The position numbers and the translations under genes were made by a program. This document shows, piece by piece, positions 7,001-29,465 of a DNA stretch of 32,000 nt (position 1 is the first letter of the stretch; every line of letters begins with the position of its first letter). The stretch lies in the NCBI RefSeq assembly GCF_000734015.1, contig NZ_CP008796.1, positions 1,710,001-1,742,000 on the forward strand. The letters run 5' to 3'. The notes beneath the pieces were generated by a model, which saw nothing but the letters and a program-made list of their open reading frames with translations, was not told the DNA's origin and searched no databases. This stretch comes from Thermodesulfobacterium commune DSM 2178 (lineage in GTDB: Bacteria > Desulfobacterota > Thermodesulfobacteria > Thermodesulfobacteriales > Thermodesulfobacteriaceae).

Positions 7001-7268
7001 GGTTAAAGCAGTAAATGCCCTCCCTGGTATAGGAGATTACACCAAGAAATTGACCAAAACTTTATATCATTTGGTTAATACTGGGTATGATGTAACCACG
7101 ATCTTTATCCATTGGAAGAAGATGAAAGAGTTTGAAAAGAACTTAGATCTATACTTTAAGGCTGTAGCTACACAAAAAGAATATATGGCTAAGACTATAA
7201 AGCGTATAAAGGAAATAGAAGAGGAGTTGGAAAAACTTGCTAAAGCTAAAGAAAACCCTCAGCTATAA
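4041..7268 (+). CDS. Large membrane-anchored PDZ-domain / coiled-coil protein of unknown function
   Basis: 1075-aa uninterrupted ORF with GAGAGGTG 5 nt before the ATG. It has an N-terminal hydrophobic anchor (IWVLVLLILINLIFVSWALA) and a PDZ-like segment (GVYVINVVTGSPAAKAGLNPGDIILTINNQPV, nt ~4146-4356). About 550 aa follow with no motif I recognise. Then come an Ala-rich helix (nt ~6090-6215) and a ~300-aa K/E-rich heptad-like tail. Confidence 0.8.
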   Translation: MFKRGIWVLVLLILINLIFVSWALAKREVRSELLKTEGVYVINVVTGSPAAKAGLNPGDIILTINNQPVSVENIKTLVLSGTLSGNNPNIVMSVLRNGKIFNVSTHVHPENPNLGVVVRAPQEIKRVSSDSYSGQRLIEKANKKVEVYEVSEKDSLFTKVSSINVLDAVFIDKNTGEITFVGHYDDRYKTGPLPYFQILDEALKYPYPSFSLDPTPNTERALKEIKNIFDKEISRVSRDPSYGTNWLSSIFKEILYSDNQLPEKQILLARLKKFSITPEEFNAYLRWDPKSKNWRFDSKEQLEMYFNLQSFFIKVFKALGFEGKYGQAVVEWWGFQKFAEAYGMENAGHWFRQVYETMGLIEDFEKIRTLFNTGQIDNWEATRRLLFLFYVNLFKGIGVDEHTINDLLRRAPKTGKIDLELSEFANKRVEKIQSEFLIDFLINNLVLSDTFLKKRFRLPAIEVKPTYYNLPSDTYMAKIFFYADYTLKYLTTINPETATLKDFDPFVAYLSKKAEEKGKGKEFQMMQSGFDRYWLFPGRVELKVSQDKSAIYFGKSEVKIGSESLSSGMPSWYNEILKEYSQTLTERYEEFAQIFPSLHTMREVQKIIALARWIHVNGLKVTLPHYQKVELESLDGVTGTTVAAFYSSKTRDTFSFFVENHGGGIDYTEKSNAWIQGKYIETKDALHQLAASSALAEKAVASALAGDLEAARALAEKSAQAMVGHIDLGSLGIKIPPTVSPKLSSLPVGSQGVFTQKTLEVVGANLDEYVKLKKDLKVAEGYKDVDPEKYQQILTEAKVKEAKIKESLQKLNELLNSYRNNPLDYKRIEQELVQLNPKKPSFIDVAALKPKPEDLKPKTEKDKQIKKERLLPDERKLREELADLRHKLELAKTNLDQLTKIIMENTKEFERWREKTERAISSSEARFKEVMLDMIQENIFENIKYEFSKYPNRVKEIEKFQQLLDTKDFTDWASMDPKTWEDIAEGLVKAVNALPGIGDYTKKLTKTLYHLVNTGYDVTTIFIHWKKMKEFEKNLDLYFKAVATQKEYMAKTIKRIKEIEEELEKLAKAKENPQL

Positions 7269-17554: not shown

Positions 17555-17672
17555 ATCCAACCTCCGTAATCTATGCGTTGTTTTTAAGAATAATATGAAA
17601 ACTTAGATAATAAAGAGAAGAAAAATCCTTTAAAACAAACATAAAATTATAGTTTTTTTAATCTCATTAAAC

Positions 17673-17700
17673 TTGACAAGGTAATATTTTATGTTATACA
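17673..17700 (+). promoter_or_regulatory. Candidate sigma-70-type promoter of the receptor/ABC/chelatase operon
   Basis: TTGACA (17673-17678), 16-nt spacer, TATACA (17695-17700) preceded by TG at 17692-17693 (extended -10). It lies ~118 nt upstream of ATG 17818. The whole region is very AT-rich, so chance matches are likely. Confidence 0.4.
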
Positions 17701-17817
17701 AATTTTAAAAATAAACATTTTTACAAAAACTTTTAAAACACATATAAAATAATTTGTGAAAATTTTAAGATTATTTTAAAAAATAGCTATAAAATAAAAG
17801 TTTTAGGAGGTAGAGAC

Positions 17818-20034
17818 ATGATTTTTCGATTTTGTGTTAAGTTTTTATTTGTTTTGATGTGGATTTTAACAGCTTTTATTCCTTCTTTTGCTGAAGAAAA
17901 AGAGACAAAGCTTGAGGAGATTGTGGTAACTGCAACGAGAACTGAGAAAGAGGTGGGATCTGCTCCAGCTTCTGTAAATGTTGTTACAAAGGAAAAGATC
18001 GAGCTTAAAGCTCCAAAAACAATTGATCAAACACTTAATGATATCCCTGGGGTCATGGTAAGAAGGGGCAAGGGCTTGATGGATACACTTTCTTTTATTA
18101 CTCTAAGAGGAATTCCTGAACAAAAAAGAACTTTGATTATGATTGATGGAGTTGTTCTAAATAATCCCTATACTGGAAATGTAAAAATGGGCGGATACTT
18201 TCCTGAAGACCTTGAAAGAGTTGAGGTTGTAAAAGGACCTTTTTCCTCTCTATATGGTGGTTATGCGATGGGTGGTGTTGTAAACTTTATCACAAAGATG
18301 CCTGAAAAGAGAGAATTTACCTTTAAAACAGGATATGGCTCAAGCTGGGACCGCGGAGAGGCAATGGATGACTTAAGAAGAGTTTATATTTCTTATGGAG
18401 ATAAACTTTGGGGCAAATTTAGCATATTTTTAAGCTATGGCTGGCAGGGAACAAATGGATATCCCACTGATTTGAATGTCCAGACAACAAAGCCACCAGT
18501 AGGAATTACCGGATATGAGGTAACCTCCACGAAAGAGGGTAAAACTGCCTATTTAATTGGTGATAAGGGAGATAATAGGTGGTGGGATGATGGAATAACA
18601 ATTAAGGCACAGTATGAGTTTACAAAGGATACGAAGATAAATATTTCATTTATGAGAAATCGTTATGAGTATAACTACGATGATCCTCATACTTACTTGA
18701 GAAATGCCGCAGGAAATCCAGTTTGGTCTTACGGATCTGTTACAGAAAACTCATTCCTTAATGGTGCTGGAGGAAGAATTCAGAATACCTATGCCCTGAG
18801 TTTTGAGACCTCTCTTTTTAAAGACTTAAAGATGAAGCTAAATCTTTCATACCTTGACACAGAAAAAGATTGGTATGTAACAACAAGTTCTGGTGCAAAG
18901 TTGGATGGTAGCTGTACTTCAACTTCATGCTATGTATCAAATACTCCAGCAAAAGCTTACATGGCAGACCTGCAGTTTAGTGTTCCACTATTCAACAATC
19001 AGATTCTTACCTTTGGTGGTTCTTTCAGACACGGATATGCAAATACAAAAGAAAAATATCTCAAAAACTGGAAGGACGAAAACTTAACAACAACCTTAAA
19101 ATATGAATCAAAGGGGAAGGATAAGACCTACTCTTTCTTCATTCAGGATGAGATAATGCTTCTTAATAATCTTACTGCTTATATTGGATTCAGGCAGGAT
19201 TGGTGGAAAACCTATGATGGATATGCTAATGATGTTGGTAAAGCTGGATATCCAAAGGAGTATCCATCAAAGACCGCTTCTTCTTTTAGTCCGAAATTTG
19301 CTCTTGTTTATAAACCCTTTGCTATTACAACCCTTCGTGGCTCGATTGGAAAGGCATTTAGACCACCAACAGTATATGAGCTTTACAGAACATGGACTTC
19401 TGGGTCAACCATCTACGTTTCCAATCCTGATTTAGACCCTGAAAAAGTTACCTCATGGGATATTGGAGTTGAGCAGAAACTCTGGAAAGGTGCAAAGGTA
19501 TCCCTGATATATTTTGAAAACTACATGAAAGACTTAATTTATCGTAAAACTGTTAAAATTGGATCATATACCCGGCAGGAGTATGTCAATGTTGGAAAAG
19601 CTGAATCTCGTGGAGTTGAGTTTGAGCTTGAGCAGAAATTTGAAAATTGGTTTAGAGTTTTCGTAAATTTCACCTATACAGATTCTGAGATCAAAGAAAA
19701 TGAGGCAAAGCCAGAAACTGTAGGTTGCAGATTGACATATACTCCATTATGGAAGGCAAATATAGGAGCTGAGTTTGAGAAATCCGGTTTTCAAGTATTT
19801 ATCATTGGTAGATATGTTGATAAGTGGTATGGTAATGATGACAATTCAGACAAAGAAAAAAATGTTTATGGTTCCTATGATCCATACTTTGTCGTTGATG
19901 GAAGAATTGCATATCAGATAACTAAGTTTGCAAAGCTTAGCTTCTCAGTTGATAACATATTTGACAGAAAATACTATCAATACTACAGAGCACCGGGAAG
20001 GTCATGGTTCGCCGAGCTTACTTTAAAGTTTTAG
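17818..20034 (+). CDS. TonB-dependent outer-membrane receptor
   Basis: 738 aa with AGGAGG 7 nt upstream. It has a signal peptide, a TonB-box/plug start (LEEIVVTATRTEKEV), the plug motif LRGIPEQKRTLIMIDGV, a long beta-barrel and a terminal aromatic residue (AELTLKF). Confidence 0.9.
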   Translation: MIFRFCVKFLFVLMWILTAFIPSFAEEKETKLEEIVVTATRTEKEVGSAPASVNVVTKEKIELKAPKTIDQTLNDIPGVMVRRGKGLMDTLSFITLRGIPEQKRTLIMIDGVVLNNPYTGNVKMGGYFPEDLERVEVVKGPFSSLYGGYAMGGVVNFITKMPEKREFTFKTGYGSSWDRGEAMDDLRRVYISYGDKLWGKFSIFLSYGWQGTNGYPTDLNVQTTKPPVGITGYEVTSTKEGKTAYLIGDKGDNRWWDDGITIKAQYEFTKDTKINISFMRNRYEYNYDDPHTYLRNAAGNPVWSYGSVTENSFLNGAGGRIQNTYALSFETSLFKDLKMKLNLSYLDTEKDWYVTTSSGAKLDGSCTSTSCYVSNTPAKAYMADLQFSVPLFNNQILTFGGSFRHGYANTKEKYLKNWKDENLTTTLKYESKGKDKTYSFFIQDEIMLLNNLTAYIGFRQDWWKTYDGYANDVGKAGYPKEYPSKTASSFSPKFALVYKPFAITTLRGSIGKAFRPPTVYELYRTWTSGSTIYVSNPDLDPEKVTSWDIGVEQKLWKGAKVSLIYFENYMKDLIYRKTVKIGSYTRQEYVNVGKAESRGVEFELEQKFENWFRVFVNFTYTDSEIKENEAKPETVGCRLTYTPLWKANIGAEFEKSGFQVFIIGRYVDKWYGNDDNSDKEKNVYGSYDPYFVVDGRIAYQITKFAKLSFSVDNIFDRKYYQYYRAPGRSWFAELTLKF

Positions 20035-20999
20035 TAATATTAACAACATTTTTAATGGTAGGGGTAGTTCATGCCTCTACCATAACTATAACTGACAAGC
20101 TTGGAAGAAAGGTAAGTCTTAAAGTCCCTGTTAAAAGAGCAGTAGTTGTCATTTCATATGAGCTTATACCTGCATTGAATTTATGGGATCAGGTTGTAGG
20201 TGTGTCTCGCTGGGCAGAGGAAAACTGCGGTTTGTATAAAGCATTTGTAAATGAGAATCCTGCACTTAAGAAACCTTTAGTTGGTGCTGGAAGTGATGTA
20301 AATGTGGAGGCTGTGTTGAAACTTAATCCTGATGTAGTAATTACATGGACATACAATCCTAATACAATAAGATTTCTTGAACAAAAGGGAATAAAAGTAA
20401 TTGGAATATATCCTGAAAGTCTTACAGAGCTTTACCGGGATATGAGAATGCACGGAAAGATTTTCGGTAAAGAAAAGAAAACAGAAGAAGTAATAAAAGA
20501 AATGAACAGAATATTCAAACTTATTGAAGACAGAGTAAGTAAAATACCCTCAGATAAGAGAAAAAAGGTAATCCATCTTGGAGGAACTCCAACAAGGGTT
20601 TCAGGAGTATTGGGAGTTATTAATGATTTAATAAAAATTGCAGGAGCAATTAATCCTGCAGGCACAATCATGCAAAGAAATGTTGATGTTTCAGTAGAAA
20701 AAATAATTGAGTGGAATCCGGATGTAATATTCATCTGGGGTTCTGCAGGATATGATGAATCCTGGCTCTACCATAATTCCCAGTGGAGGTTCATAAAGGC
20801 AGTAAAAAACCGTAAAGTCTACAAGCTTCCAAGGTGGTCAACATGGTCGCCAAGACTAGCACCAATTGCTCTTTACATGGCTATGAAGATTTATCCTGAG
20901 TATTTTAGGGACATTAACTTTGAAAAGATAGCTGATGATTTTTACAAAAAAGTGTTTGGAATATCTTACTATAAAGTGAAGCGGTATGAAGGGTATTAA
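20004..20999 (+). CDS. Periplasmic substrate-binding protein of an Fe-siderophore/haem/cobalamin-type ABC importer (Peripla_BP_2-like)
   Basis: 331 aa with a signal peptide (MVRRAYFKVLVILTTFLMVGVVHA). The two-lobe motifs LNPDVVITW and WNPDVIFIW are typical of the BtuF/FhuD/HmuT class. It overlaps the receptor gene by 31 nt. Confidence 0.8.
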   Translation: MVRRAYFKVLVILTTFLMVGVVHASTITITDKLGRKVSLKVPVKRAVVVISYELIPALNLWDQVVGVSRWAEENCGLYKAFVNENPALKKPLVGAGSDVNVEAVLKLNPDVVITWTYNPNTIRFLEQKGIKVIGIYPESLTELYRDMRMHGKIFGKEKKTEEVIKEMNRIFKLIEDRVSKIPSDKRKKVIHLGGTPTRVSGVLGVINDLIKIAGAINPAGTIMQRNVDVSVEKIIEWNPDVIFIWGSAGYDESWLYHNSQWRFIKAVKNRKVYKLPRWSTWSPRLAPIALYMAMKIYPEYFRDINFEKIADDFYKKVFGISYYKVKRYEGY

Positions 21000-21987
21000 A
21001 GCGATAATGATAATTTTTTCTCCTTTACTTGTCTCTTGGATTGCTCTTTTTCTTGGTGCCTACGAGATTACGCCATTCATGGTTTTAAAGATTCTTTTGA
21101 ATGAGACATTTCATATCTTTGAAATCGGAGATATACCTGAAAAGGCAATAATTATTGACATAAGACTTCCGAGAGTGATCCTTGCCGGATGTGTAGGTGC
21201 CTCACTTTCAGTTTCAGGAGTAACCCTTCAGGGTATATTCAGAAATCCTCTGGTTGATCCATTTATCCTCGGGATTTCAGCAGGTGCTGCCTTTGGATGT
21301 GCCCTGACTATCGGATTTTTGAGTGTGCTTCCTGTTCAGATTATGGCTTTTTTATTTGCCGTGCTTGCCGTAGTCATTGCTTATACAGTTGCGAGGGTGC
21401 AGGGGGAGGTGTCCCGTCTCCCTCTTATTCTTTCTGGAGTGATAGTTTCAGCCTTTTTTACAGCAATGGTTTCAATAGTCAAATTTCTTGTTGACCCTCA
21501 CAAACTTCAGAGCATCGTTTACTGGCTTATGGGAAGTTTCTCTCTTGCCGACTGGAAAGCTGTAAAAATTGGAGCAGCTGGAGTTTTTTTTGGAGTTTTG
21601 CCTATTTTTTTAATGCGATGGAGGCTTAATGTAATGAGTATGGGAGAAGAGGAGGCTAAGGCACTGGGAGTAAACATAAAGAGGGAGAGACTACTTTTCA
21701 TAGGCTTTTCAACTTTTGCTGTAGCTGTGGCTACATCTCTTTGTGGGATCATAGGATGGGTTGGTCTTATCGTGCCTCATCTGGTAAGAATGCTTACAGG
21801 GCCTGACCATAGAAGCCTTGTTCCACTTTCTCTTTGTGCAGGTGCTGCCTTCATGATTGCTGCCGATACTATTTCAAGAACTCTTACAAGTTTTGACATA
21901 CCTGTAGGAATAGTAACAGCCCTTACTGGTGCACCATTTTTCCTATACCTTATGAAACATGGGGGTCAAGAAGCCTGGGGTAAGTGA
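20986..21987 (+). CDS. FecCD/BtuC-family ABC importer permease
   Basis: 333 aa, polytopic and hydrophobic. It has FecCD-like motifs (RLPRVILAGCVGASLSVSGVTLQGIFRNPLVDPFILGISAGA; GIVTALTGAPFFLYLM). It overlaps the upstream gene by 14 nt. Confidence 0.88.
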   Translation: MKGIKAIMIIFSPLLVSWIALFLGAYEITPFMVLKILLNETFHIFEIGDIPEKAIIIDIRLPRVILAGCVGASLSVSGVTLQGIFRNPLVDPFILGISAGAAFGCALTIGFLSVLPVQIMAFLFAVLAVVIAYTVARVQGEVSRLPLILSGVIVSAFFTAMVSIVKFLVDPHKLQSIVYWLMGSFSLADWKAVKIGAAGVFFGVLPIFLMRWRLNVMSMGEEEAKALGVNIKRERLLFIGFSTFAVAVATSLCGIIGWVGLIVPHLVRMLTGPDHRSLVPLSLCAGAAFMIAADTISRTLTSFDIPVGIVTALTGAPFFLYLMKHGGQEAWGK

Positions 21988-22757
21988 TGCTTAGCGTAAA
22001 AAATATTTATTTCAAGCATAAAACAACCGGAAGGGAAGTTTTAAAGGGTGTAAGTTTTGATGCTCTGGATGGTAGCATTACCACAATTCTTGGCCCAAAT
22101 GGTTCAGGGAAAACCACACTTTTTAAATGCATAATCGGACTGTGGAAACCTCATAAAGGCGAGGTTATGGTTGATGGTGTTTCTGTAGATAAGCTTTCTT
22201 TCAGAAAAAGGGCAAGGATTTTTTCGGTGGTTCCTCAGGAGCATGAACCTCCTTTTCCCTATTCAGTTTTTGATGTGGTTTTGATGGGCAGAGCAAGCTA
22301 TGTTGGAGTTTTTTCATCTCCTGGTAAAAGAGATTATGAAATGGCTGAAGAGGCTTTAAAAATAGCTGGAATTGAACATTTAAGAGATGTGCCCTACACA
22401 AAAATAAGTGGTGGAGAGAGACAGCTTACCTTGATTGCAAGAGCTCTTTGCCAGAATGCTCCTGTGATGTTACTTGATGAGCCGACCTCACATCTTGATT
22501 TTAGAAATCAGATAACTCTGCTTAAAAAAATCAAGGAAATTGCAGGACAGAGAAAATTGACTGTTGTTATGACCCTACACGATCCAAATCTGGCAGGTAT
22601 TTTTTCTGATAAGGTGGTTGTAATTAACTCAGGAACCAAGGTAGCAGAAGGAAGTCCTGAAGAAGTTCTTACAGAGGATTTGATTAAAAGAGTTTATGAT
22701 GTTGAGGTAAGAAAAACTCAGATTAACGGACGAAGTATAATATGTCCTGTTTTGTAG
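21984..22757 (+). CDS. ABC importer ATP-binding protein (FecE/BtuD/HmuV-like)
   Basis: Walker A GPNGSGKTT, signature ISGGERQ, Walker B MLLDEPTSHLD and an H-loop (TLHD). A 4-nt overlap links it to the permease gene. Confidence 0.9.
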   Translation: MMLSVKNIYFKHKTTGREVLKGVSFDALDGSITTILGPNGSGKTTLFKCIIGLWKPHKGEVMVDGVSVDKLSFRKRARIFSVVPQEHEPPFPYSVFDVVLMGRASYVGVFSSPGKRDYEMAEEALKIAGIEHLRDVPYTKISGGERQLTLIARALCQNAPVMLLDEPTSHLDFRNQITLLKKIKEIAGQRKLTVVMTLHDPNLAGIFSDKVVVINSGTKVAEGSPEEVLTEDLIKRVYDVEVRKTQINGRSIICPVL

Positions 22758-22767
22758 GAGGATTAAA

Positions 22768-25173
22768 ATGCTCAAAATAGTTTCCATCGTTTGGCAGAGC
22801 TATTACAATGCAGTTTTAAGAGCATCAAAAAGTATTAAAGAGTTTAAGATAAAAGTCTACTCAGCAAGAGTCCTTGACTCAAAACCTGAGAGGCTTGATG
22901 AAGTCTTGAAAGAGATTAAAGATGCTGATATTTTATTTCTTTATCGTTCAACAGAACCAGTTTGGGAAGAGATAGAAAAAACAATAAAGAAAGAGGGTTT
23001 AAAAGCAAAAATAGTATGCCTTGGGCATGATCCTTCTTACTGGATGCTTTCCAATGTAGACCATAAGATTGTGCATAAAGCATATAAATATCTCGTGATA
23101 AATGGGGAAAAAAATATTAAAAATCTATTTCTCTTTCTTGCTAATGAGCTCACCGGTTTAAATATTCTTTATGATGAACCCGAAGAAATTCCATGGGAAG
23201 GGCTATATCACCCAAGGGCAGAAATCATTTTTACTGATGTTGAGGAATATCTCAGCTGGTATCAAAGATACAAACCTCATACATACGGAAAAAATCCCAC
23301 AGTTGGAATACTTTTTTCGAGGCATTACTGGATAAACGGTAATACCGAGGTTGAGGATTTGCTTATTGAAGAGCTTGAGGCAAAGGGATTTAATGTAATC
23401 TCAGCGTTTGCCTATTCTGTAAAGGATAATGCTTTAGGAACAAAGGGTAGCGGAGAGGTAATATTAGATTGGTTCTTTGATGAGCATGGTACACCAAGAA
23501 TTGATATTATGGTGAAGCTTATCTCCTTTTTCTTGGGAACTAACAGAGAAAAGACAATAGATAACACTGAAGTAGCCGCAGATGGAGTTGAGATTCTGAA
23601 AAGGCTTAATGTGCCGGTTATTTCACCCGTCTCTTCTTATTATAAAACAATTGAAGAATGGGAAAAGGAAGATTTAAATCTTGATATTGGTTGGTCTATT
23701 GCGCTTCCTGAGTTTGAAGGAGTCATTGAGCCAGTTATTATTTCTGCGCAAAAAGAAGGCTCTGAAGATGAAAGGATAAAAGTCCCAATAAGAGAAAGGG
23801 TGAAAAAACTTGTAGAAAGGATTTCTCGATGGGTTGAGCTTAAAAAAACTCCTGCCCATGAAAGAAGGGTTGCCTTTATACTTCACAACAACCCATGTGC
23901 CTCTGTTGAAGCAACGGTTGGCTCAGCTGCTTATCTTGACAGCATTGAAAGTGTAGTTGAGATTATGAAAAAGATGAAAGAATCTGGCTACAATGTTGAT
24001 CCACCTGAGAACGGAAAAGCCTTGATAGATGAGATAATGAGTAAAAAGGCAATTTCAGAGTTCAGATGGACAACTGTTGAAGAAATCGTTGAAAAAGGTG
24101 GTGTTATTGCTTTAGTTGATAAGGAAAAATATCTTGAATGGTTCAATGAACTTCCTCCCAAGACCCGTTTAAAAATGATTGAGGCATGGGGAGAGCCTCC
24201 AGGGGAACACAAAAATGAAATACCTCCTGCAATGGTTTACGATGGAAAAATCGTAATCACAGGGCTTAGATTTGGAAATGTTTTGGTTATGGTTCAACCA
24301 AAAAGAGGATGTGCAGGAGCAAGATGCGATGGACAGGTCTGTAGAATACTTCACGATCCCGATACACCACCACCTCATCAGTATGTGGCAACGTATAAGT
24401 GGCTTTCCCGTGAGTTTAAAGCTCATGCAGTAGTTCATGTAGGCACTCATGGAAATCTTGAATTTTTGCCAGGTAAAGGGGTTGCCCTTTCTCAAGCCTG
24501 TTTTCCTGACATTGGTATTGATACAATGCCTCACCTTTATATTTACAATGCCGACAATCCACCTGAGGGTACCATCGCCAAGAGACGCTCTCTGGCAGTT
24601 CTTGTTGATCACATGCAGACTGTCCTTACGGAAGGAGGACTTTACGATGAACTTTTAGAGCTTGACAGACTCCTTGGTGAGTATGAAGAGGCAAAGAAAA
24701 AAGAACCTGCAAGGCTTCATGTTCTTGAACACTTGATAATACATGCGATTACCAAATCAAAGCTTGACAGAGAGATAAAAGTTTTATGGCAGGGCAAGAA
24801 GATTTCACTTTCAGAGTTAAGCCATGATGAGCTGCATCAGATACCCTTTGAGAAAATTGTGGAAGAAGCGCATGCAAAGCTTTCGCTTATTAGAAATACC
24901 CAGATCCAGGATGGTATGCATGTTTTTGGCAGGGTTCCAGAGGCAGAAAGAAGGATTGATTTTATTTATTCAATTCTAAGATACGATGCAGGAAGTGAAG
25001 TTTCACTGAGAAAAGAGATCGCAAAATTACTTGGATACGAGCTTTCAGATCTTGTTTCGAATCCTCAGGGTTTTGATCCTGAAAAAGGCAAATCCTACGG
25101 TGCAATTTTAGAAGAGATAGACAGGATAGGCAAAGAAGTGATAAAAAAAGTTTTGTTTCAGGAGGTTAACTGA
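22768..25173 (+). CDS. cobN: CobN/ChlH-family chelatase large subunit, N-terminal two-thirds (split gene, part 1)
   Basis: 801 aa with AGGAGG 6 nt upstream. CobN-like motifs include RVAFILHNNPC, GNVLVMVQPKRG, HQYVATYKWL, VVHVGTHGNLEFLPGK and PHLYIYNADNPPEGTIAKRR. It ends at a TGA that overlaps the next ATG. Confidence 0.85.
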   Translation: MLKIVSIVWQSYYNAVLRASKSIKEFKIKVYSARVLDSKPERLDEVLKEIKDADILFLYRSTEPVWEEIEKTIKKEGLKAKIVCLGHDPSYWMLSNVDHKIVHKAYKYLVINGEKNIKNLFLFLANELTGLNILYDEPEEIPWEGLYHPRAEIIFTDVEEYLSWYQRYKPHTYGKNPTVGILFSRHYWINGNTEVEDLLIEELEAKGFNVISAFAYSVKDNALGTKGSGEVILDWFFDEHGTPRIDIMVKLISFFLGTNREKTIDNTEVAADGVEILKRLNVPVISPVSSYYKTIEEWEKEDLNLDIGWSIALPEFEGVIEPVIISAQKEGSEDERIKVPIRERVKKLVERISRWVELKKTPAHERRVAFILHNNPCASVEATVGSAAYLDSIESVVEIMKKMKESGYNVDPPENGKALIDEIMSKKAISEFRWTTVEEIVEKGGVIALVDKEKYLEWFNELPPKTRLKMIEAWGEPPGEHKNEIPPAMVYDGKIVITGLRFGNVLVMVQPKRGCAGARCDGQVCRILHDPDTPPPHQYVATYKWLSREFKAHAVVHVGTHGNLEFLPGKGVALSQACFPDIGIDTMPHLYIYNADNPPEGTIAKRRSLAVLVDHMQTVLTEGGLYDELLELDRLLGEYEEAKKKEPARLHVLEHLIIHAITKSKLDREIKVLWQGKKISLSELSHDELHQIPFEKIVEEAHAKLSLIRNTQIQDGMHVFGRVPEAERRIDFIYSILRYDAGSEVSLRKEIAKLLGYELSDLVSNPQGFDPEKGKSYGAILEEIDRIGKEVIKKVLFQEVN

Positions 25174-26642
25174 TGGAAATTTTAAAGAAGATTGACTGGC
25201 AAAGACCAGAATGGAAGGCAATAAAGGAAAAAATTCTTGAAATTAACAGAAAGATTGAGGAATCACGTGAGATAGAATCTTTACTTCATGGACTTTCTGG
25301 AGGGTATATTCCTCCAGGTCCTTCAGGATTGATAGCCCGTGGAAGGGATGATGTTTTACCTACAGGGAGAAACTTTTACAGCCTTGATCCCCACAGAGTT
25401 CCTACAAAAACTGCCTTTGAGATTGGTAAAAGACTTACTGAAAAACTTATTGAAAAGCATGTTACTGAAGAGGGGAGATATCCAGAAAATGTTGCTATTT
25501 ATTGGCAGTGCTCAGACATCATGTGGGCAGATGGAGAGGGTATGGGTCAGATTATGTATCTTTTAGGAGTAAAGCCTATATGGCTTTCCAATGGAAGGGT
25601 CAAAGGGTTTGAAATAATTCCTTTAAATGAGCTTGGTAGACCCCGCATTGATGTCACCATCAGGGTCTCAGGTATTACAAGAGACAATTTCCCGATGTGC
25701 ATCGAACTTATAGATGAGGCCATACAAGTAGTTGCCTCTTTAGATGAGCCATTGGATATGAATTTTGTTCGCAAGCATACTTTAGAGTTAATTGCTCAAA
25801 ATGAAGTTGACTTTCGTTCAGCAACATTAAGAGTTTTCTGCTCAATGCCTGGTACCTATCAAGCAGGGACTCAGCTTGCTGTTTATGCTTCGGCATGGAA
25901 AGAAGAAAAAGACCTTGCGGAAGTATTTCTTTACTGGAATGGATATGCCTACGGAAAGGGAATCTGGGGTGAAAGCAAGCATAAAGAGTTTGCCCAGATT
26001 TTAAAAAGCGTTGATATTACTTACAATAAAGTAGTATCAGACGAGTACGATCTTTTGGGATGTTGCAGTTATTTTGGAACTTATGGAGGAATGACAGCTG
26101 CAGCAAGGCATTTAAGTGGTAAGGAGGTAAAAACCTACTATGGAGATACAAGAAATCCTGACCATGTAGAGGTAAGAACACTTTCTGATGAGATAAGACG
26201 TGTGGTAAGGACAAAGCTTCTAAATCCAAAATGGATTGAGGGAATGAAGAGACACGGATATAAAGGTGCTGGGGATATTTCAAAAAGAATAGGAAGAGTC
26301 TATGGTTGGGAAGCAACAACTAAAGAAGTTGATGACTGGATATTTGATGACATAGCAAGAACATTTATCATGAACGAGGAAAATAGAAAATTTTTTGAGG
26401 AACATAATCCATGGGCGATGGAAGAGATTGCCAGAAGACTTATTGAGGCGATGGAGCGCGGATTGTGGAATCCTTCCGAGGATGTAAAAGAGGTCTTGAA
26501 GGTATTTTATCTTGAAATTGAAGGCTGGATAGAAGAAAAAATGGGAGATATTAAAGGGGATTTTCAAGGAGGTTCAATTGATGTTATAACAGCAGAAGAG
26601 GTAGAGTTCTGGAAAAATAAAATGAGAGAGGTAATAAAATGA
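25173..26642 (+). CDS. cobN: CobN/ChlH-family chelatase large subunit, C-terminal third (split gene, part 2)
   Basis: 489 aa. It begins just before the conserved [37 protein letters not shown] block. Further on come [20 protein letters not shown] and [10 protein letters not shown]. 801 + 489 = 1290 aa, which is a typical full CobN length. Confidence 0.88.
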
Positions 26643-27649
26643 TATTTCCATTTACTGCTATTGTCGATCAGGAAGAGATGAAGCTTGCATTAATTCTTAA
26701 TGTGATCGACCCAAGCATCGGTGGAGTACTTATTATGGGTGAAAAAGGAACTGCTAAATCAACAACTGTTCGTGCTTTGGCTGATTTACTTCCTGAGATA
26801 GAAGTGGTTAAGGGTTGTAGATTCAACTGTTCCCCGGAAGGGCCTTTTTGCAGTGATTGTTTAGAAAAAATTAAAAATAACGAAACATTAGAGTTTGAAA
26901 AAAAGAAGATGAGAGTGGTTGAGCTTCCACTTGGAGTAACCGAAGACAGGGTTGTTGGGAGCCTTGATATTGAGCATGCAATAAAAAAAGGCGAAAAACG
27001 CTTTGAGCCAGGTATTCTTGCAGAGGCCAACAGAAACTTTCTTTATATTGATGAAGTGAATCTTTTAGAAGATCACATTGTGGATTTACTCTTGGATTCT
27101 GCAGCGATGGGAGTAAACACGGTCGAAAGGGAGGGGATCTCCTTTGTTCATCCTGCAAGATTTATTCTTGTTGGAACCATGAACCCTGAAGAAGGAGAAC
27201 TCCGTCCACAACTTCTCGACAGATTTGGACTGTGTGTTTTTGTTAATTCATTAAAAGAAAAGAGTTTAAGAGTTGAAGTACTTAAAAGAAAAGCCGAATT
27301 TGATGATGATCCTGAAGGTTTTTTAAAAAAATGGGAACCTCATCAACAAAGCCTTGCCGCAAGGATCATAAAGGCAAAAGAGAATCTTAAAAACGTAAAA
27401 ATTACTGAAGACGCTCTCTCTAAAGTTGTTGAGATTACTTCTCAATTAAATCTTGATGGTCATAGAGCAGACATAGTGATGTTAAAAGCTGCCCGTGCTC
27501 ATGCAGCGTATAATGAAAGAAAAGAGATTATTCCAGATGATATTAAAAAAATTGCGCCTTTAGCTTTAAAACACAGGCTTAAAAGACTACCTTTTGAAGA
27601 AATCTCAACAGAACTGGAAAAGCTTAACGAAGTTATTACACGAATATAG
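26639..27649 (+). CDS. ChlI/BchI-like AAA+ chelatase ATPase subunit
   Basis: 336 aa with [40 protein letters not shown] (Walker A), LYIDEVNLL (Walker B), [36 protein letters not shown] and [19 protein letters not shown]. An ATGA overlap links it to cobN part 2. Confidence 0.9.
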
Positions 27650-27650
27650 A

Positions 27651-29465
27651 ATGACTTTTTCAGATTTTGTAGACCAAGAACAGGCAAAACTTGCTCTGAT
27701 TTTAAATGCAATACTGCCAGACTGTGGTGGACTTCTATTAGTTGGTAAGAGAGGAACAGGCAAGTCCACCCTCTTAAAAGCTTTCAAAAATATTGTTCAG
27801 GCTCTTAATATTCCTTTTGTTGAACTTCCCATGAATTCTACTGAAGAGGCAGTTTTAGGCGGAATTGATATTGAAGAGACAGTTAAGCAAGGTAGAAGAA
27901 TTTATCAAAAAGGACTTGTTTCAAAGGCACACGGGGGATTTCTTATGATTGAAGATATAAACCTTTTCCCTAATGATATACTCTCCCTGATTTTTGAAGT
28001 CCAATCAAGAGGGGAAAATATCATTGAAAGAGAAGGAATTACACTAAAAGAGCCAGCTAAATTTCAGATTCTTGCAACGATGAACCCAGAGGAAGGAGAT
28101 TTTTCAGCTCATTTTCTTGATAGATTTGGTATGTGCGTGATTATGGATGAAATTAAAGATAAAAATAAAAGGATAGAGATCGTAAAACTTAATCTCGACT
28201 GTGCAGATCAAAATAAGGATTTTCAGTTAATAGAAAGAATTTTAAAGTCAAAGGAATTTATCAAACAACTCAGACTTTCAGATGAAATAAAAGAATACAT
28301 AGCCGAATTAACGCTAAAAGAAGCTGTTTCAGGACATAGGGCTGATATATTTTTAATGTATGCCTCAAAGGCCTATGCAGCTTATAAGGAAGAAAAAGAA
28401 ATCCGAAAAGAACATGTTGATAGGGTTGCTCCTCTTGTTTTTATTCACAGAAAAAGGCAGGTTGAGAATCCTCAAACAGAAGAGAAAGAACAAGAGCAGA
28501 AAAGAAAGGAAAATACAGAGGAAAGAGGAAACAAAGAAAATAAACCAAAACATACTTCATCAACTCAATTTTCCGAGCAAGGAAGTCCTCAGGAAAGGCC
28601 ATCAAGTGAAAAAGAGGAAGTTTTTCCAGTTGGTGACAGCTTTAAAGTAAAAAGAATTTTATTAAAAAAGGATAGAATTTTGAGAGAAGTTTTTGGAAGA
28701 AGAACAAAAACAAAAATAAAAGGTAGAGGAGGAAGATTTGTTAGAAGTTTAATGCAAAAAAGAGAGGATATTGCCATTTCTGCAACACTTAGAGCAGCAG
28801 CCCCATTTCAAAAAGTAAGAGGTAGAAAAGATAAGCTTATCATAAAAGATCAGGATCTAAGATATAAAGAAAAAGAGAGAAAGATGAGCCATATTGTTAT
28901 ATTTGTTGTGGATGCTTCTGGTTCTATGGGTGTTGAGCAAAGGATGATACAAACAAAAGGAGCAATACTGTCTCTTCTTATGGATTGCTATCAGAAAAGA
29001 GATAAAGTTGCGATGATTGTTTTCAGAAAAGACCGTGCAGAGGTAGTTCTCCCCCCAACCTCTTCTCATGACCTTGCTTTAAAAAGACTAAAACAAATTC
29101 CCACAGGAGGTAAAACACCACTTTCAGCAGGGCTTATGGAAGCATATAAGTTGATAAAAAGAACATCTTTAAAAGAACCAGAAGCCCGTTTTTTGATGAT
29201 TCTCGTCACAGATGGCAAAGCTAACGTTCCTATCGCTGAAAAATCCTCTATCACTTTATTTGAAGAAGTCAGGAAAATCTGTTCTACACTGAAAAATATA
29301 CCTAAAGTCGATTTTGTAGTCGTTGATACAGAAAAGAAAAATAAATTTATAAAAATAGATATGGCACTAAAAATTGCAGAATGGCTTTCTGGTAAATATT
29401 TTAAAATAAATACTCTTACATCTGAAAATCTTGTAGAAATTGTAAAGTTCTATAAGATAGATTAA
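27651..29465 (+). CDS. ChlD/BchD-like chelatase subunit (AAA+-like N-domain, charged linker, C-terminal vWA/MIDAS domain)
   Basis: Start moved from 27594 to ATG 27651, 1 nt after the chlI-like stop, so the N-terminus (MTFSDFVDQEQAKLALILNA...) aligns with the ChlI paralogue. It has Walker A VGKRGTGKST, a K/E-rich linker (nt ~28449-28620) and a vWA domain with MIDAS VIFVVDASGSMG...TGGKTPL...VTDGKAN. Confidence 0.85.
   Translation: MTFSDFVDQEQAKLALILNAILPDCGGLLLVGKRGTGKSTLLKAFKNIVQALNIPFVELPMNSTEEAVLGGIDIEETVKQGRRIYQKGLVSKAHGGFLMIEDINLFPNDILSLIFEVQSRGENIIEREGITLKEPAKFQILATMNPEEGDFSAHFLDRFGMCVIMDEIKDKNKRIEIVKLNLDCADQNKDFQLIERILKSKEFIKQLRLSDEIKEYIAELTLKEAVSGHRADIFLMYASKAYAAYKEEKEIRKEHVDRVAPLVFIHRKRQVENPQTEEKEQEQKRKENTEERGNKENKPKHTSSTQFSEQGSPQERPSSEKEEVFPVGDSFKVKRILLKKDRILREVFGRRTKTKIKGRGGRFVRSLMQKREDIAISATLRAAAPFQKVRGRKDKLIIKDQDLRYKEKERKMSHIVIFVVDASGSMGVEQRMIQTKGAILSLLMDCYQKRDKVAMIVFRKDRAEVVLPPTSSHDLALKRLKQIPTGGKTPLSAGLMEAYKLIKRTSLKEPEARFLMILVTDGKANVPIAEKSSITLFEEVRKICSTLKNIPKVDFVVVDTEKKNKFIKIDMALKIAEWLSGKYFKINTLTSENLVEIVKFYKID

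Follow-up and report, generated by a model that had tools for sequence, protein, structure and literature searches.

A transporter and chelatase operon

The window analysed here is a 32,000-nucleotide stretch of the Thermodesulfobacterium commune genome. ORF calls place eight co-directional, overlapping genes on its + strand at 17818-29465, with seven junctions of -31, -14, -4, +10, -1, -4 and +1 nt (Table 1), exactly as a sequence-only reading had laid them out. The domain labels of that reading were all confirmed by Pfam profiles, and NCBIfam agrees with them. Because of these junctions, and since no internal terminator above chance was found in the operon, the eight genes are probably co-transcribed. 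Window-wide gene annotation also bore out the claim that no cob/cbi, bch/chl or hem genes lie elsewhere in the 32-kb window. The neighbours are rpoC, rpsO, panC, panD, hslUV, ADH, rtcB, YkuD and genes for a PDZ protein, an acylphosphatase, an M20 peptidase, a ComF-like protein, a CN-hydrolase/cytidylyltransferase fusion, a MiaB-like protein and a lipoprotein.

Table 1 Features of the T. commune operon and its leader (positions in the window)
Feature	Position	Strand	Product or size	Basis
AT-rich promoter/leader region	17561..17817	+		read from sequence
Perfect 9-nt inverted repeat TAAAATAAT-N16-ATTATTTTA	17745..17778	.		repeat search
TonB-dependent outer-membrane receptor	17818..20034	+	738 aa, signal peptide	Plug + TonB_dep_Rec_b-barrel (Pfam)
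Type II ABC importer periplasmic binding protein	20004..20999	+	331 aa, signal peptide	Peripla_BP_2 (Pfam)
FecCD-family permease	20986..21987	+	333 aa	FecCD, 313 bits (Pfam)
Importer ABC ATPase	21984..22757	+	256-257 aa	ABC_tran (Pfam)
CobN-type large chelatase subunit, N-terminal polypeptide	22768..25173	+	801 aa	CobN-Mg_chel (Pfam)
CobN-type large subunit, C-terminal polypeptide	25173..26642	+	489 aa	CobN-Mg_chel (Pfam)
ChlI-type AAA+ motor	26639..27649	+	336 aa	AAA_lid_2 / AAA_5 / Mg_chelatase (Pfam)
ChlD-type adaptor	27651(ATG)/27594(TTG)-29465	+	604 aa from ATG	ChlI-type AAA+ domains + VWA (Pfam)

The leader holds a putative promoter, picked by eye, of TTGACA (17673-17678) and TATACA (17695-17700) with a 16-nt spacer. 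The inverted repeat sits between it and the start codon and may be an operator, a candidate whose significance is unproven in such AT-rich DNA. No riboswitch was matched by Rfam in the leader, no canonical Fur box was found there (best match 12/19), and a motif search gave no copy at this operon of the SYCANGRARGYY hairpin motif seen in relatives.

The transport proteins resemble several known families. The receptor has a hydrophobic N-terminus and reaches 240 bits with TonB-hemin, its top NCBIfam model, short of the 317 cut-off, so that no specific receptor family is assigned. Among solved structures, the binding protein scores highest with H. pylori CeuE/NiuB (4INO/4INP, 141 bits), a Ni(II)-(His)2 binding protein, followed by MolA (101), IsdE (46), ShuT/PhuT (45) and BtuF (26 bits); the identity to CeuE/NiuB is ~30%, a level that would not fix the ligand. 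The closest NCBIfam models for the permease and the ATPase are archaeal BtuC (267 bits, under its 461 cut-off) and the F420-0-type and haem-type ATPases (both under cut-off), respectively.

The large chelatase subunit is encoded in two parts, of which the first covers positions 1-655 and the second 676-1088 of the CobN-Mg_chel profile (1090 positions). The best NCBIfam match, the CobN model NF004646, gives 1036 bits for the first part and 875 bits for the second, with a cut-off of 1468. The parts meet at TGATG, through which the second polypeptide is predicted to be translationally coupled to the first, and an AGGAGG Shine-Dalgarno sequence lies 8 nt before the second ATG. A sequencing frameshift was ruled out as the cause of the split by this arrangement and by ~800-aa homologues in Thermodesulfovibrio, Thermodesulfobacteriaceae, Thermodesulforhabdus and Dissulfurimicrobium; remoter homologues are fused, at ~1300 aa. 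The split point lies before the C-terminal region known from crystals of that region alone, represented by 5EWU, 9FPC and 6YS9, whose alignments start at residue ~861-877 when the two parts are joined end to end. A conserved HVGTHGNLEFLPGK motif at residue 556 of the N-terminal polypeptide is identical in 60/71 relatives, and HxGxHGxxExxPGK, the motif of the active-site region, is kept. The N-terminal polypeptide shows neither a TM segment nor a Met-rich insert, and the split CobN is predicted to be cytoplasmic.

ChlI carries the P-loop variant GEKGTAKS, present in 40/49 family members, and the Walker B motif DE (47/49), and scores 452 bits with TIGR02030 BchI-ChlI, just below the 467 cut-off. 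ChlD has GKRGTGKS as Walker A and ED as Walker B in its AAA+ domain, besides an acidic linker and a VWA domain (VWA_2 in Pfam) with the MIDAS DASGS; DxSGS is found in 40/40 relatives. Its scores are 429 bits with TIGR02031 (cut-off 500) and 530 bits with TIGR02442 (cut-off 779). Since CobN keeps its motif, ChlI its Walker motifs and ChlD its MIDAS, the chelatase machine looks functional.

Linkage in relatives and a hairpin at nickel-uptake loci

Of 45 related loci that are 12 kb or longer, 42 place this CobN clade next to an importer or a receptor, and they come from three phyla or more. Nitrospirota, Thermodesulfobacteriota and Desulfobacterota have loci in the order receptor - binding protein - permease - ATPase - CobN - ChlI - ChlD, and in Firmicutes the order is ChlD-ChlI-CobN-binding protein-permease-ATPase, so that the suggestion of a conserved functional unit held up. 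The T. commune operon is 63-87% identical throughout to that of Thermodesulfovibrio, which belongs to a different phylum, but only 51-80% to that of the congeneric T. hydrogeniphilum, and one identity pattern across loci is common to all eight genes. Such higher identity to another phylum than to a congener suggests that the operon was inherited as a unit.

The importer type differs between loci. Most have the FecCD type, whereas L032, L033, L051, L053 and L054 have an ECF type made up of CbiQ, a fused ATPase and a novel 544-aa S-like component. The linkage to CobN persists whichever type is present, which favours a cargo that CobN uses as substrate over a mere free metal ion. A DrrAB/NodIJ-like exporter pair (ABC-2) occurs in 19/70 loci, several paralogous CobN-receptor-binding protein sets can share one genome (e.g., L029, L035 and L069), and DUF4198 adjoins CobN in L029. 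Consistent with the earlier reading, we saw no B12 link of the system: neither the window nor 14 loci, Firmicutes included, have a B12 riboswitch ahead of the cluster, and no cob/cbi gene is a recurrent neighbour of CobN in ~70 neighbourhoods.

A hairpin-terminator, GGCCAYGAAGGYC...CUUCRUGGC-U5+, which is absent from Rfam, has 35 matches in 1.07 Mb of related loci versus 0-3 in shuffles. Most are found 20-250 nt ahead of a receptor, CobN or FecCD gene, and the orthologous Thermodesulfovibrio operon (L007) has one. The stem covaries, with one pair never unpaired (CG 57, UA 16, GC 4, UG 3) and 88.6% of cells paired overall, versus 33-48% with partners slid. In metagenomes, we considered a set of at least 120 loci selected with a pattern derived from the related operon loci. 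Among the matches listed, the hairpin lies upstream of CbiM/NikM 25 times, PDGLE 14 times, DUF4198 seven times and a TonB-receptor Plug five times, with no iron-uptake family among the families reported downstream. A HIPDG start is present in 20/24 of the hairpin-linked CbiM/NikM proteins among these matches: 18 begin MHIPDG, and two have an N-terminal extension before LHIPDG or VHIPDG. We take MHIPDG proteins to be NikM and DUF4198 to be NikK. In at least 25 metagenomic loci, a CooT gene (PF10133) lies before the hairpin.

Known systems with similar parts

The proposal, mentioned in the sequence-only reading, that HmuS (PDB 9D26), encoded in the hmu operon of Bacteroidota, takes iron from haem has become fact: HmuS is a demonstrated haem dechelatase, a superfamily precedent showing that the fold can strip metal from a tetrapyrrole (PMC12583661). 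Both systems set a CobN/ChlH-superfamily large subunit beside a TonB-dependent receptor, with a role in metal acquisition rather than cofactor biosynthesis. However, HmuS exceeds 1400 aa, sits on the periplasmic side of the membrane with an anchor at each end, has a Met-rich insertion and Met79/His254 as haem ligands, requires NADH and the membrane fraction rather than ATP (PMC12583661), and has neither ChlI/ChlD partners nor an ABC importer. In contrast, the T. commune CobN is split, appears soluble and cytoplasmic, and almost always comes with ChlI, ChlD and an inner-membrane importer. An identity with Hmu/HmuS was therefore rejected, given a predicted cytoplasmic CobN that still has its AAA+ motor but neither membrane anchors nor the Met-rich insert.

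With CobN-ChlID and CobNST of late-cobalt-insertion B12 synthesis, the operon has in common a large subunit, an AAA+ motor and a VWA adaptor. It differs in having no nearby cob genes or B12 riboswitch, a split large subunit, an importer that is almost always linked, and strict anaerobes as hosts. The sequence-only reading had made its case depend in part on CobN not nesting within the characterised cobaltochelatases, and by its scores against PDB entries it does not: it has 571 bits with ChlH, 561 with M. tuberculosis CobN, 508 with CobN 9UK9 and 381 with HmuS, about equally far from characterised CobN and ChlH. The I and D subunits are likewise of the Mg-chelatase (BchHID/ChlHID) type, but both fall under the curated cut-offs, and the host is a non-phototroph without bch/chl genes.

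On the transport side, one of the closest known systems is H. pylori FrpB4 with NiuBDE (CeuE/FecDE), which also joins a TonB-dependent receptor to a Peripla_BP_2 / FecCD / ATPase importer and imports Ni and Co (PMC5140060). This Helicobacter system has no chelatase partner and is controlled by NikR rather than by an RNA hairpin, and the likeness of the binding proteins is one of overall similarity score. The surveys of transporter-linked CobN mentioned in the sequence-only reading also exist. Rodionov 2003, as cited in PMC6460266, describes a class labelled in SEED 'CobN-like chelatase BtuS for metalloporphyrine salvage', defined from genome context alone, that is not B12-regulated, clusters with receptor/transporter genes and has salvage, not biosynthesis, as its predicted role. 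By that description the T. commune operon would belong to it, although the characterised Bacteroides BtuS2 (HmuS) and BtuS1 are periplasmic.

What the operon may do

We tentatively suggest that the operon is a nickel/cobalt acquisition module, in which a metal-loaded, tetrapyrrole-like cargo is processed by CobN-ChlI-ChlD at the expense of ATP, probably with release of the metal. The receptor would carry a tightly chelated metal complex over the outer membrane and the NiuBDE-like importer would move it through the inner membrane. In the cytoplasm, the class-I chelatase-type machine would then act on this complex, with the split CobN as catalytic subunit, ChlI as AAA+ motor and ChlD as adaptor. 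As the cargo would be the machine's own substrate, we infer from synteny a tetrapyrrole with its metal bound or a tetrapyrrole-like metallophore, from which the machine would most likely extract the metal for the cell. Relatives with the DrrAB-like exporter would use it to discharge the ligand once freed of its metal. Nickel or cobalt is a likelier metal here than iron, judging from the CeuE/NiuB-like binding protein, the hairpin shared with NikM and CooT loci, the lack of a canonical Fur box and the missing HmuS features.

Alternatively, although we consider it somewhat less likely, the importer would supply a small Co(II) or Ni(II) chelate and CobN-ChlI-ChlD would insert the metal into an endogenous tetrapyrrole. 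It would be a cobaltochelatase (or nickel chelatase) of high affinity, driven by ATP, and might stand in for CbiK/CbiX in corrinoid synthesis at low cobalt. The scores with the NF004646 equivalog, the public annotation of the large subunit as a cobaltochelatase, the retention of the motor, as in all known inserting enzymes, and the corrinoid-dependent anaerobic lifestyle of the hosts are consistent with this, as are the nearness of the binding protein to a small-complex binder whose importer carries cobalt too (PMC5140060) and the acceptance of ChlID with CobN as a cobaltochelatase combination (PMC6593275, PMC9227772). Yet neither B12 riboswitches (in the window and 14 loci) nor recurrent cob/cbi neighbours (in ~70 neighbourhoods) accompany the cluster, the paralogous sets within one genome speak against it, the recurrent exporter would go unexplained, and a cytosolic metal pool would make strict linkage to a dedicated, architecture-changing importer needless.

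The sequence-only reading had offered two options, of which import of haem, with CobN-ChlID taking out its iron in the cytoplasm, now seems improbable. The sub-cut-off TonB-hemin and haem-ATPase matches point this way, HmuS proves the superfamily capable of the reaction, and the Fe/S source affects CobN-like 'BtuS' proteins in Methanosarcina (PMC10846266). Nonetheless, the binding protein is much nearer the nickel binder than IsdE, ShuT or PhuT, the hairpin of relatives goes with NikM, DUF4198 and CooT, and neither a canonical Fur box nor the HmuS-defining features are present. The conserved unit of that reading stands, whereas its HmuS-like route to haem iron is not supported. Its other option, that a cobalt-free corrinoid or free porphyrin is imported and then metallated, is improbable as well. 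It would keep the intact motor in its usual forward direction and suit a transporter class that moves corrinoids and haem, with a permease nearest BtuC; it leaves co-regulation with nickel importers unexplained, provides no by-product for the exporter, and is at odds with the absence of a B12 riboswitch and a binding protein far from BtuF. Incidental linkage of a siderophore or metallophore importer to an unrelated chelatase, already disfavoured and with nothing specific in its favour, is very improbable given gene order and overlapping junctions kept across phyla, a single identity pattern over eight genes and a hairpin ahead of transporter and CobN genes alike.

Several points also weigh against the nickel/cobalt acquisition module. 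The T. commune leader has no hairpin, so its membership of the regulon would be transferred from orthologues; what CeuE/NiuB binds is no tetrapyrrole but a small Ni-(His)2 complex; and we identified no Ni-tetrapyrrole source or product. To our knowledge, every known ChlI/ChlD- or CobS/CobT-dependent enzyme inserts metal. HmuS, the sole known dechelatase, needs no ATP (PMC12583661). Our combined findings nevertheless suggest that this operon may serve to harvest nickel, rather than to obtain haem iron or to make vitamin B12.

Composition of the operon and relationship of its chelatase to characterized enzymes

The operon comprises eight open reading frames on one strand, with junctions of -31, -14, -4, +10, -1, -4 and +1 nt. 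Profile searches of the window proteins against Pfam and NCBIfam confirmed the content proposed in the sequence-only reading, namely a TonB-dependent receptor, a Peripla_BP_2 binding protein, a FecCD permease, an ABC ATPase, CobN in two parts, a ChlI-like AAA+ protein and a ChlD-like AAA+/VWA protein. They carry public annotation labels such as “cobaltochelatase subunit CobN”, “magnesium chelatase” and “iron complex” transporter. That reading had also noted the absence of tetrapyrrole genes elsewhere in the window, and our gene survey of the window agreed with this, finding no tetrapyrrole-pathway gene outside the operon, with the remainder consisting of housekeeping genes. Outside the operon, a 1075-aa protein has an N-terminal PDZ domain (residues 36-105) as its sole recognizable domain, the remaining ~970 residues having no Pfam match. 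A terminator scan of the operon yielded 17 internal candidates versus 12.8 ± 3.8 expected, which is no excess, and co-transcription of the eight genes appears likely.

The CobN/Mg-chelatase profile (1090 positions) is divided between the two CobN polypeptides, with positions 1-655 on the first and 676-1088 on the second, and the junction consists of a TGATG overlap together with an AGGAGG ribosome-binding site. The two-part form is kept in this clade across several phyla, more distant homologues being fused, and the split point lies just N-terminal to the region that was crystallized alone from ChlH and CobN. Since the split is conserved, is provided with a ribosome-binding site and precedes a separately crystallized region, CobN can be considered a natural two-gene arrangement. 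A frameshift or pseudogene was ruled out by the junction sequence and by conservation of the split among homologues.

Functional motifs are largely retained: the CobN motif HVGTHGNLEFLPGK is present in 60 of 71 relatives, the ChlI P-loop GEKGTAKS in 40 of 49 family members and its Walker B DE in 47 of 49, and the ChlD MIDAS DxSGS in all 40 relatives. The ChlI P-loop, in the window and in the relatives, is non-canonical, with Ala at the position of the Walker A Gly, and the ChlD of the window has a canonical P-loop with ED instead of the Walker B DE. The N-terminal part of CobN also carries a cysteine cluster, CAGARCDGQVC, ~25 residues before the catalytic-region motif, which may be a metal or Fe-S site.

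Compared with solved structures, the concatenated CobN scored 571 bits to ChlH, 561 to CobN of M. tuberculosis, 508 to CobN 9UK9 and 381 to HmuS. By this measure, which rests on PDB bit scores rather than on a tree, the window CobN is a separate branch, outside every characterized enzyme and equidistant from the solved CobN and ChlH. Its best NCBIfam model is the “CobN equivalog” NF004646 (1036 + 875 bits on the two halves, cut-off 1468), which is passed only by the sum of the halves. TIGR02257 gave 357 + 456 bits against a cut-off of 822, and when summed the BchH model TIGR02025 is passed about equally well (430 + 460 bits, cut-off 829). Both remaining subunits fall below the curated Mg-chelatase cut-offs (ChlI, TIGR02030, 452 versus 467 bits; ChlD, TIGR02031, 429 versus 500), and, unlike the context of BchHID/ChlHID, the window contains no bch or chl genes.

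The sequence-only reading had raised a likeness to HmuS, the demonstrated haem dechelatase of Bacteroidota (PMC12583661), which did not stand up to comparison. HmuS is a periplasm-facing protein of more than 1400 aa with membrane anchors at its N- and C-terminus and a Met-rich insertion. Its activity requires NADH and the membrane fraction but not ATP, and it has no ChlI/ChlD partners; it belongs to an operon with HmuY, HmuR and HmuTUV, and Met79 and His254 are the axial haem ligands at its head/neck interface (PMC12583661). In contrast, the window CobN consists of 801 + 489 aa with peak 19-residue hydropathies of 1.22 and 1.07, and therefore has neither a transmembrane segment nor a signal peptide in either half. 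It has at most 6 Met per 120-residue window (1.5% and 2.9% Met overall), and in place of the hmu set it has ChlI, ChlD and a type II ABC importer as partners. Identity with HmuS was thus ruled out by size, anchors, Met insertion, operon content and the bit score.

No link to B12 emerged either. Rfam at the gathering threshold gave no match in the window, and neither the window nor 14 related loci, Firmicutes included, has a cobalamin riboswitch ahead of the cluster. The two such riboswitches found among these loci point away from the cluster or lie downstream of it. Riboswitch control was thus rejected, and no cob/cbi neighbours recur in a census of about 70 loci, which sets the system apart from the class-I cobaltochelatases of B12 synthesis (CobNST/CobN-ChlID). 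As far as these searches reach, nothing ties the window CobN system to B12, and on the comparisons of sequence and gene context made here it appears to be neither HmuS, a pathway cobaltochelatase nor a Mg-chelatase. Class-I chelatase homologues outside the chlorophyll and B12 pathways are listed as unexplained in the HmuS paper, whose authors state that annotation is not possible for homologues lacking a cob, chl or hmu context (PMC12583661). The window operon does fit the context-defined “BtuS” class of Rodionov, which comprises CobN-like proteins that are not B12-regulated and are clustered with receptor and transporter genes (PMC6460266).

Transport components and conservation of the cluster

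The best solved relative of the window binding protein is CeuE/NiuB of H. pylori (4INO/4INP; 141 bits, E = 5e-40, residues 29-325), followed by MolA (101 bits) and structural-genomics proteins, with IsdE (46), ShuT/PhuT (45) and BtuF (26) far lower. CeuE/NiuB binds Ni(II)-(His)2, and NiuBDE imports nickel and cobalt together with a TonB-dependent receptor (PMC5140060). The operon holds the component set of such NiuBDE/FrpB4-type Ni(Co) uptake, with a CeuE/NiuB homologue, a FecCD permease, an ATPase and a TonB-dependent receptor. The components all fall under the curated cut-offs for the corrinoid (BtuBFCD) and haem (HmuRTUV/Isd) transporters (TonB-B12, 170 versus 600; TonB-hemin, 240 versus 317; BtuF, 35 versus 234; IsdE, 59 versus 299; BtuC, 267 versus 461; haem ATPase, 216 versus 261).

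Scanning a genome collection with the N-terminal part of CobN produced 74 loci, and the gene order was found to be conserved across several phyla. The order receptor, binding protein, permease, ATPase, CobN, ChlI, ChlD occurs in Thermodesulfovibrio, Thermodesulfobacteriaceae, Thermodesulfatator, Dissulfuribacterales and other Desulfobacterota, and Firmicutes (Acetobacterium, Syntrophaceticus, Lachnospiraceae, Ruminococcaceae) have ChlD, ChlI, CobN, binding protein, permease, ATPase. Among the 45 loci of at least 12 kb, 39 carry an inner-membrane importer, 42 an importer or a receptor and 35 ChlI/ChlD. The eight window proteins are 63-87% identical to those of the orthologous operon of Thermodesulfovibrio (Nitrospirota; locus L007), versus only 51-80% for the congeneric Thermodesulfobacterium hydrogeniphilum (L015). 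The operon therefore moves as a unit, and its pattern of identities suggests inter-phylum transfer of the whole T. commune operon with replacement of the leader.

The importer itself varies. In five loci an ECF-type importer takes the place of the FecCD type; it combines a CbiQ-like T component and a fused double ATPase with a novel S-like protein of ~540-544 aa. This protein, which has no Pfam or NCBIfam match, comprises a signal sequence, a ~300-aa extracytoplasmic domain and ~6 C-terminal helices. These loci also encode a ~550-aa beta-propeller protein between receptor and CobN. A DrrAB/NodIJ-like ABC-2 exporter pair lies inside the cluster in 19 related loci, Firmicutes among them, and is absent from the window operon; it may export the metal-free ligand. 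Single genomes can hold several CobN paralogues, each with its own receptor and binding-protein genes, as in one Desulfobacterium (L029, L035, L069) and in Desulfosarcina (L046, L080). L035 has three CobN genes in 22 kb, and two of these belong to a subfamily of 1261 aa that is ~32% identical. In Desulfosarcina variabilis (L046), a nitrogenase-like trio directly follows a set of CobN, receptor and binding protein, with one NifH/CfbC-like member (352 and 348 bits to two models) and two distant NifD/K- or BchB-like members. To our knowledge, all tetrapyrrole-reducing enzymes of this superfamily (DPOR, COR, CfbCD) have the same make-up.

Coordinates of features in the window and in related loci (L handles; L081-L200 are metagenome loci)
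Feature	Locus	Position
Eight-gene operon	window, + strand	17818-29465
Cysteine cluster, CobN N-part residues ~522-532	window	24331-24363
ChlI	window	26639-27649
1075-aa PDZ protein	window	4041-7268
Cobalamin riboswitch, pointing away from cluster	L017	1-178
Cobalamin riboswitch, downstream of cluster	L043	21153-21399
Hairpin, orthologous Thermodesulfovibrio operon	L007	4617-4663
Hairpin	L007	861-907
Hairpin	L016	4800-4846
Hairpin	L017	1175-1228
Hairpin	L031	1955-2006, 8708-8753
Hairpin	L038	484-529, 3154-3209, 6217-6262, 6387-6442
Second leader element	L025	6385-6525
Second leader element	L028	1215-1320
Second leader element	L050	3195-3325
Second leader element	L066	5655-5738
CooT	L111	1562-1750
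CooT	L128	720-905
CooT	L105	688-879
CooT	L053, - strand	4261-4443
ECF-type importer	L051	14076-18273
ECF-type importer	L053	14523-19059
ECF-type importer	L033	46-4224
ECF-type importer	L032	8881-10314
ECF-type importer	L054	5476-8606
ABC-2 exporter pair	L050	8366-9954
ABC-2 exporter pair	L070	4899-6490
ABC-2 exporter pair	L028	6551-8249
Nitrogenase-like trio	L046	17521-20984

Leader elements of related operons

The window leader is AT-rich and contains a perfect inverted repeat, TAAAATAAT-N16-ATTATTTTA. Its best match to a Fur box is 12/19, within the background of AT-rich DNA, and neither a GTGTTAC-N13/14-GTAACAC nor an enterobacterial-type NikR box was seen in it by eye.

Leaders of related operons carry a GC-rich hairpin-terminator with a conserved lower stem, consisting of GGCCAYGAAGGYC, a variable inner hairpin, often with a CAGAAGU loop, then CUUCRUGGC and U5+. 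A regular expression for this pattern matched 35 times in 1.07 Mb of related loci versus 0-3 times in shuffles, ahead of receptors (13), FecCD genes (6), CobN (5) and an ABC-2 permease (1), at times in tandem. It occurs in Nitrospirota, Thermodesulfobacteriota, Desulfobacterota and Firmicutes, including the orthologous Thermodesulfovibrio operon and an adjoining second receptor-binding protein pair; the window lacks it. Pairing in the lower stem amounts to 88.6%, versus 33-48% with slid partners, and one stem position whose 3' side was free in the search pattern is CG 57, UA 16, GC 4 and UG 3 times and never unpaired. A leader peptide was ruled out, as CCATGAAGG can have CAC, CAA or CAG in place of its ATG, and an HGFFY “peptide” proved to be encoded by the 3' strand of the terminator and its T run. 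Rfam 15 has no family for the hairpin or the GC-rich leaders, with permissive scans of L028:1000-1400, L016:4700-4935 and ten NikM loci returning noise.

Scanning metagenome contigs with the pattern gave at least 120 hairpin loci. Among the matches listed, the genes downstream encode CbiM/NikM (25), PDGLE (14), DUF4198 (7), DUF3842 (6), an outer-membrane channel family (6), TonB-receptor Plug (5) and FmdE (3) proteins; DUF4198 also directly follows CobN in L029. Of 24 CbiM-family proteins among the matches listed, 20 start with HIPDG (18 as MHIPDG, two as LHIPDG or VHIPDG after an N-terminal extension); MHIPDG we take to be the NikM form and MHIMEG the CbiM form. The N-terminus is important for metal binding in these proteins (PMC3945884). 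Among the matches listed, 25 of 120 loci have a gene for CooT (PF10133, 61-63 aa, N-terminal Met-Cys) 50-230 nt ahead of the hairpin, some in the order CooT, hairpin, NikM, and in L053 the CobN cluster has a CooT gene 2 kb away. Members of this family were formerly annotated as predicted RNA-binding proteins, and CooT might therefore be a nickel-sensing factor that reads the hairpin. The hairpin looks like a new nickel/cobalt-regulon attenuator, and we read the receptor-importer-CobN operons of the relatives as belonging to a nickel, or nickel/cobalt, uptake regulon. For the window itself the nickel link is indirect, running through the hairpin that relatives share with NikM/CooT loci. The literature searched contained no earlier description of this link or of the hairpin, both of which come from comparative evidence.

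In some loci the receptor gene is preceded by a second, longer GC-rich element, located downstream of the promoter or hairpin. Its 5' hairpin covaries, reading GGGCAGGG...CCCTGCCC in one locus and GGAGCAGGGAA...TTCCCCGCTCC in another; the element also has a conserved CTTTGGnGnGGA loop, ends in a CACCCC...CAGAAnGGGGGGTGA tail and has no Rfam match.

A possible role in metal acquisition

Since CobN stays welded to an importer of changing architecture, and NikMNQO for free nickel is in the regulon, the imported cargo would itself be the substrate of CobN. The only substrates we know of for the CobN/ChlH fold are tetrapyrroles and their metals, and thus the cargo is probably a metal-loaded tetrapyrrole or a tetrapyrrole-like metallophore. 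We tentatively favour a metal-acquisition model in which CobN-ChlI-ChlD would process this cargo with ATP and extract its metal. The acquisition regulon, the recurrent exporter and the paralogous sets of the Desulfobacterium genome seem to fit extraction better than cofactor biosynthesis. The system resembles a FrpB4/NiuBDE-type metal importer joined to a class-I chelatase; its parts are of known kinds, and their combination has had no assigned function so far.

The strongest rival, rather unlikely in our estimate, is that the enzyme works in the forward direction, as a cobalt (or nickel) chelatase whose metal arrives through a small-chelate importer. The resemblance of the binding protein to CeuE/NiuB and the retained AAA+ motor speak for it, and we know of no ATP-driven dechelatase. 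A distinctly unlikely scenario is that anaerobes pirate nickel from environmental nickel tetrapyrroles (e.g., methanogen coenzyme F430 or nickel porphyrins) taken up through the receptor and ABC importer, with the split CobN-ChlI-ChlD as an ATP-driven “nickel dechelatase” and, in relatives, joint control with NikMNQO via the hairpin, whose reader might be the small nickel-binding protein CooT. The sequence-only reading had offered the harvesting of haem iron, which we judge highly unlikely, as two independent clues, the binding protein and the leader element of the relatives, point away from iron. Its other option, salvage of a metal-free tetrapyrrole, seems just as improbable.

Anaerobic bacteria and archaea contain abundant class-I chelatase homologues outside the chlorophyll and B12 pathways, and this operon is a compact, widely transferred representative of them. 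The shared leader hairpin provides a direct experimental handle, as its response to Ni, Co, Fe and B12 can be followed with reporter fusions, and it may represent a new class of attenuators that respond to metal. Were the metal-acquisition model to hold for nickel or cobalt, the “reverse chelatase” idea would apply to metals other than haem iron, a role for the AAA+ motor in such a reaction would be shown, and the metal supply of organisms living in sulfide, where metals are almost insoluble, would be explained.
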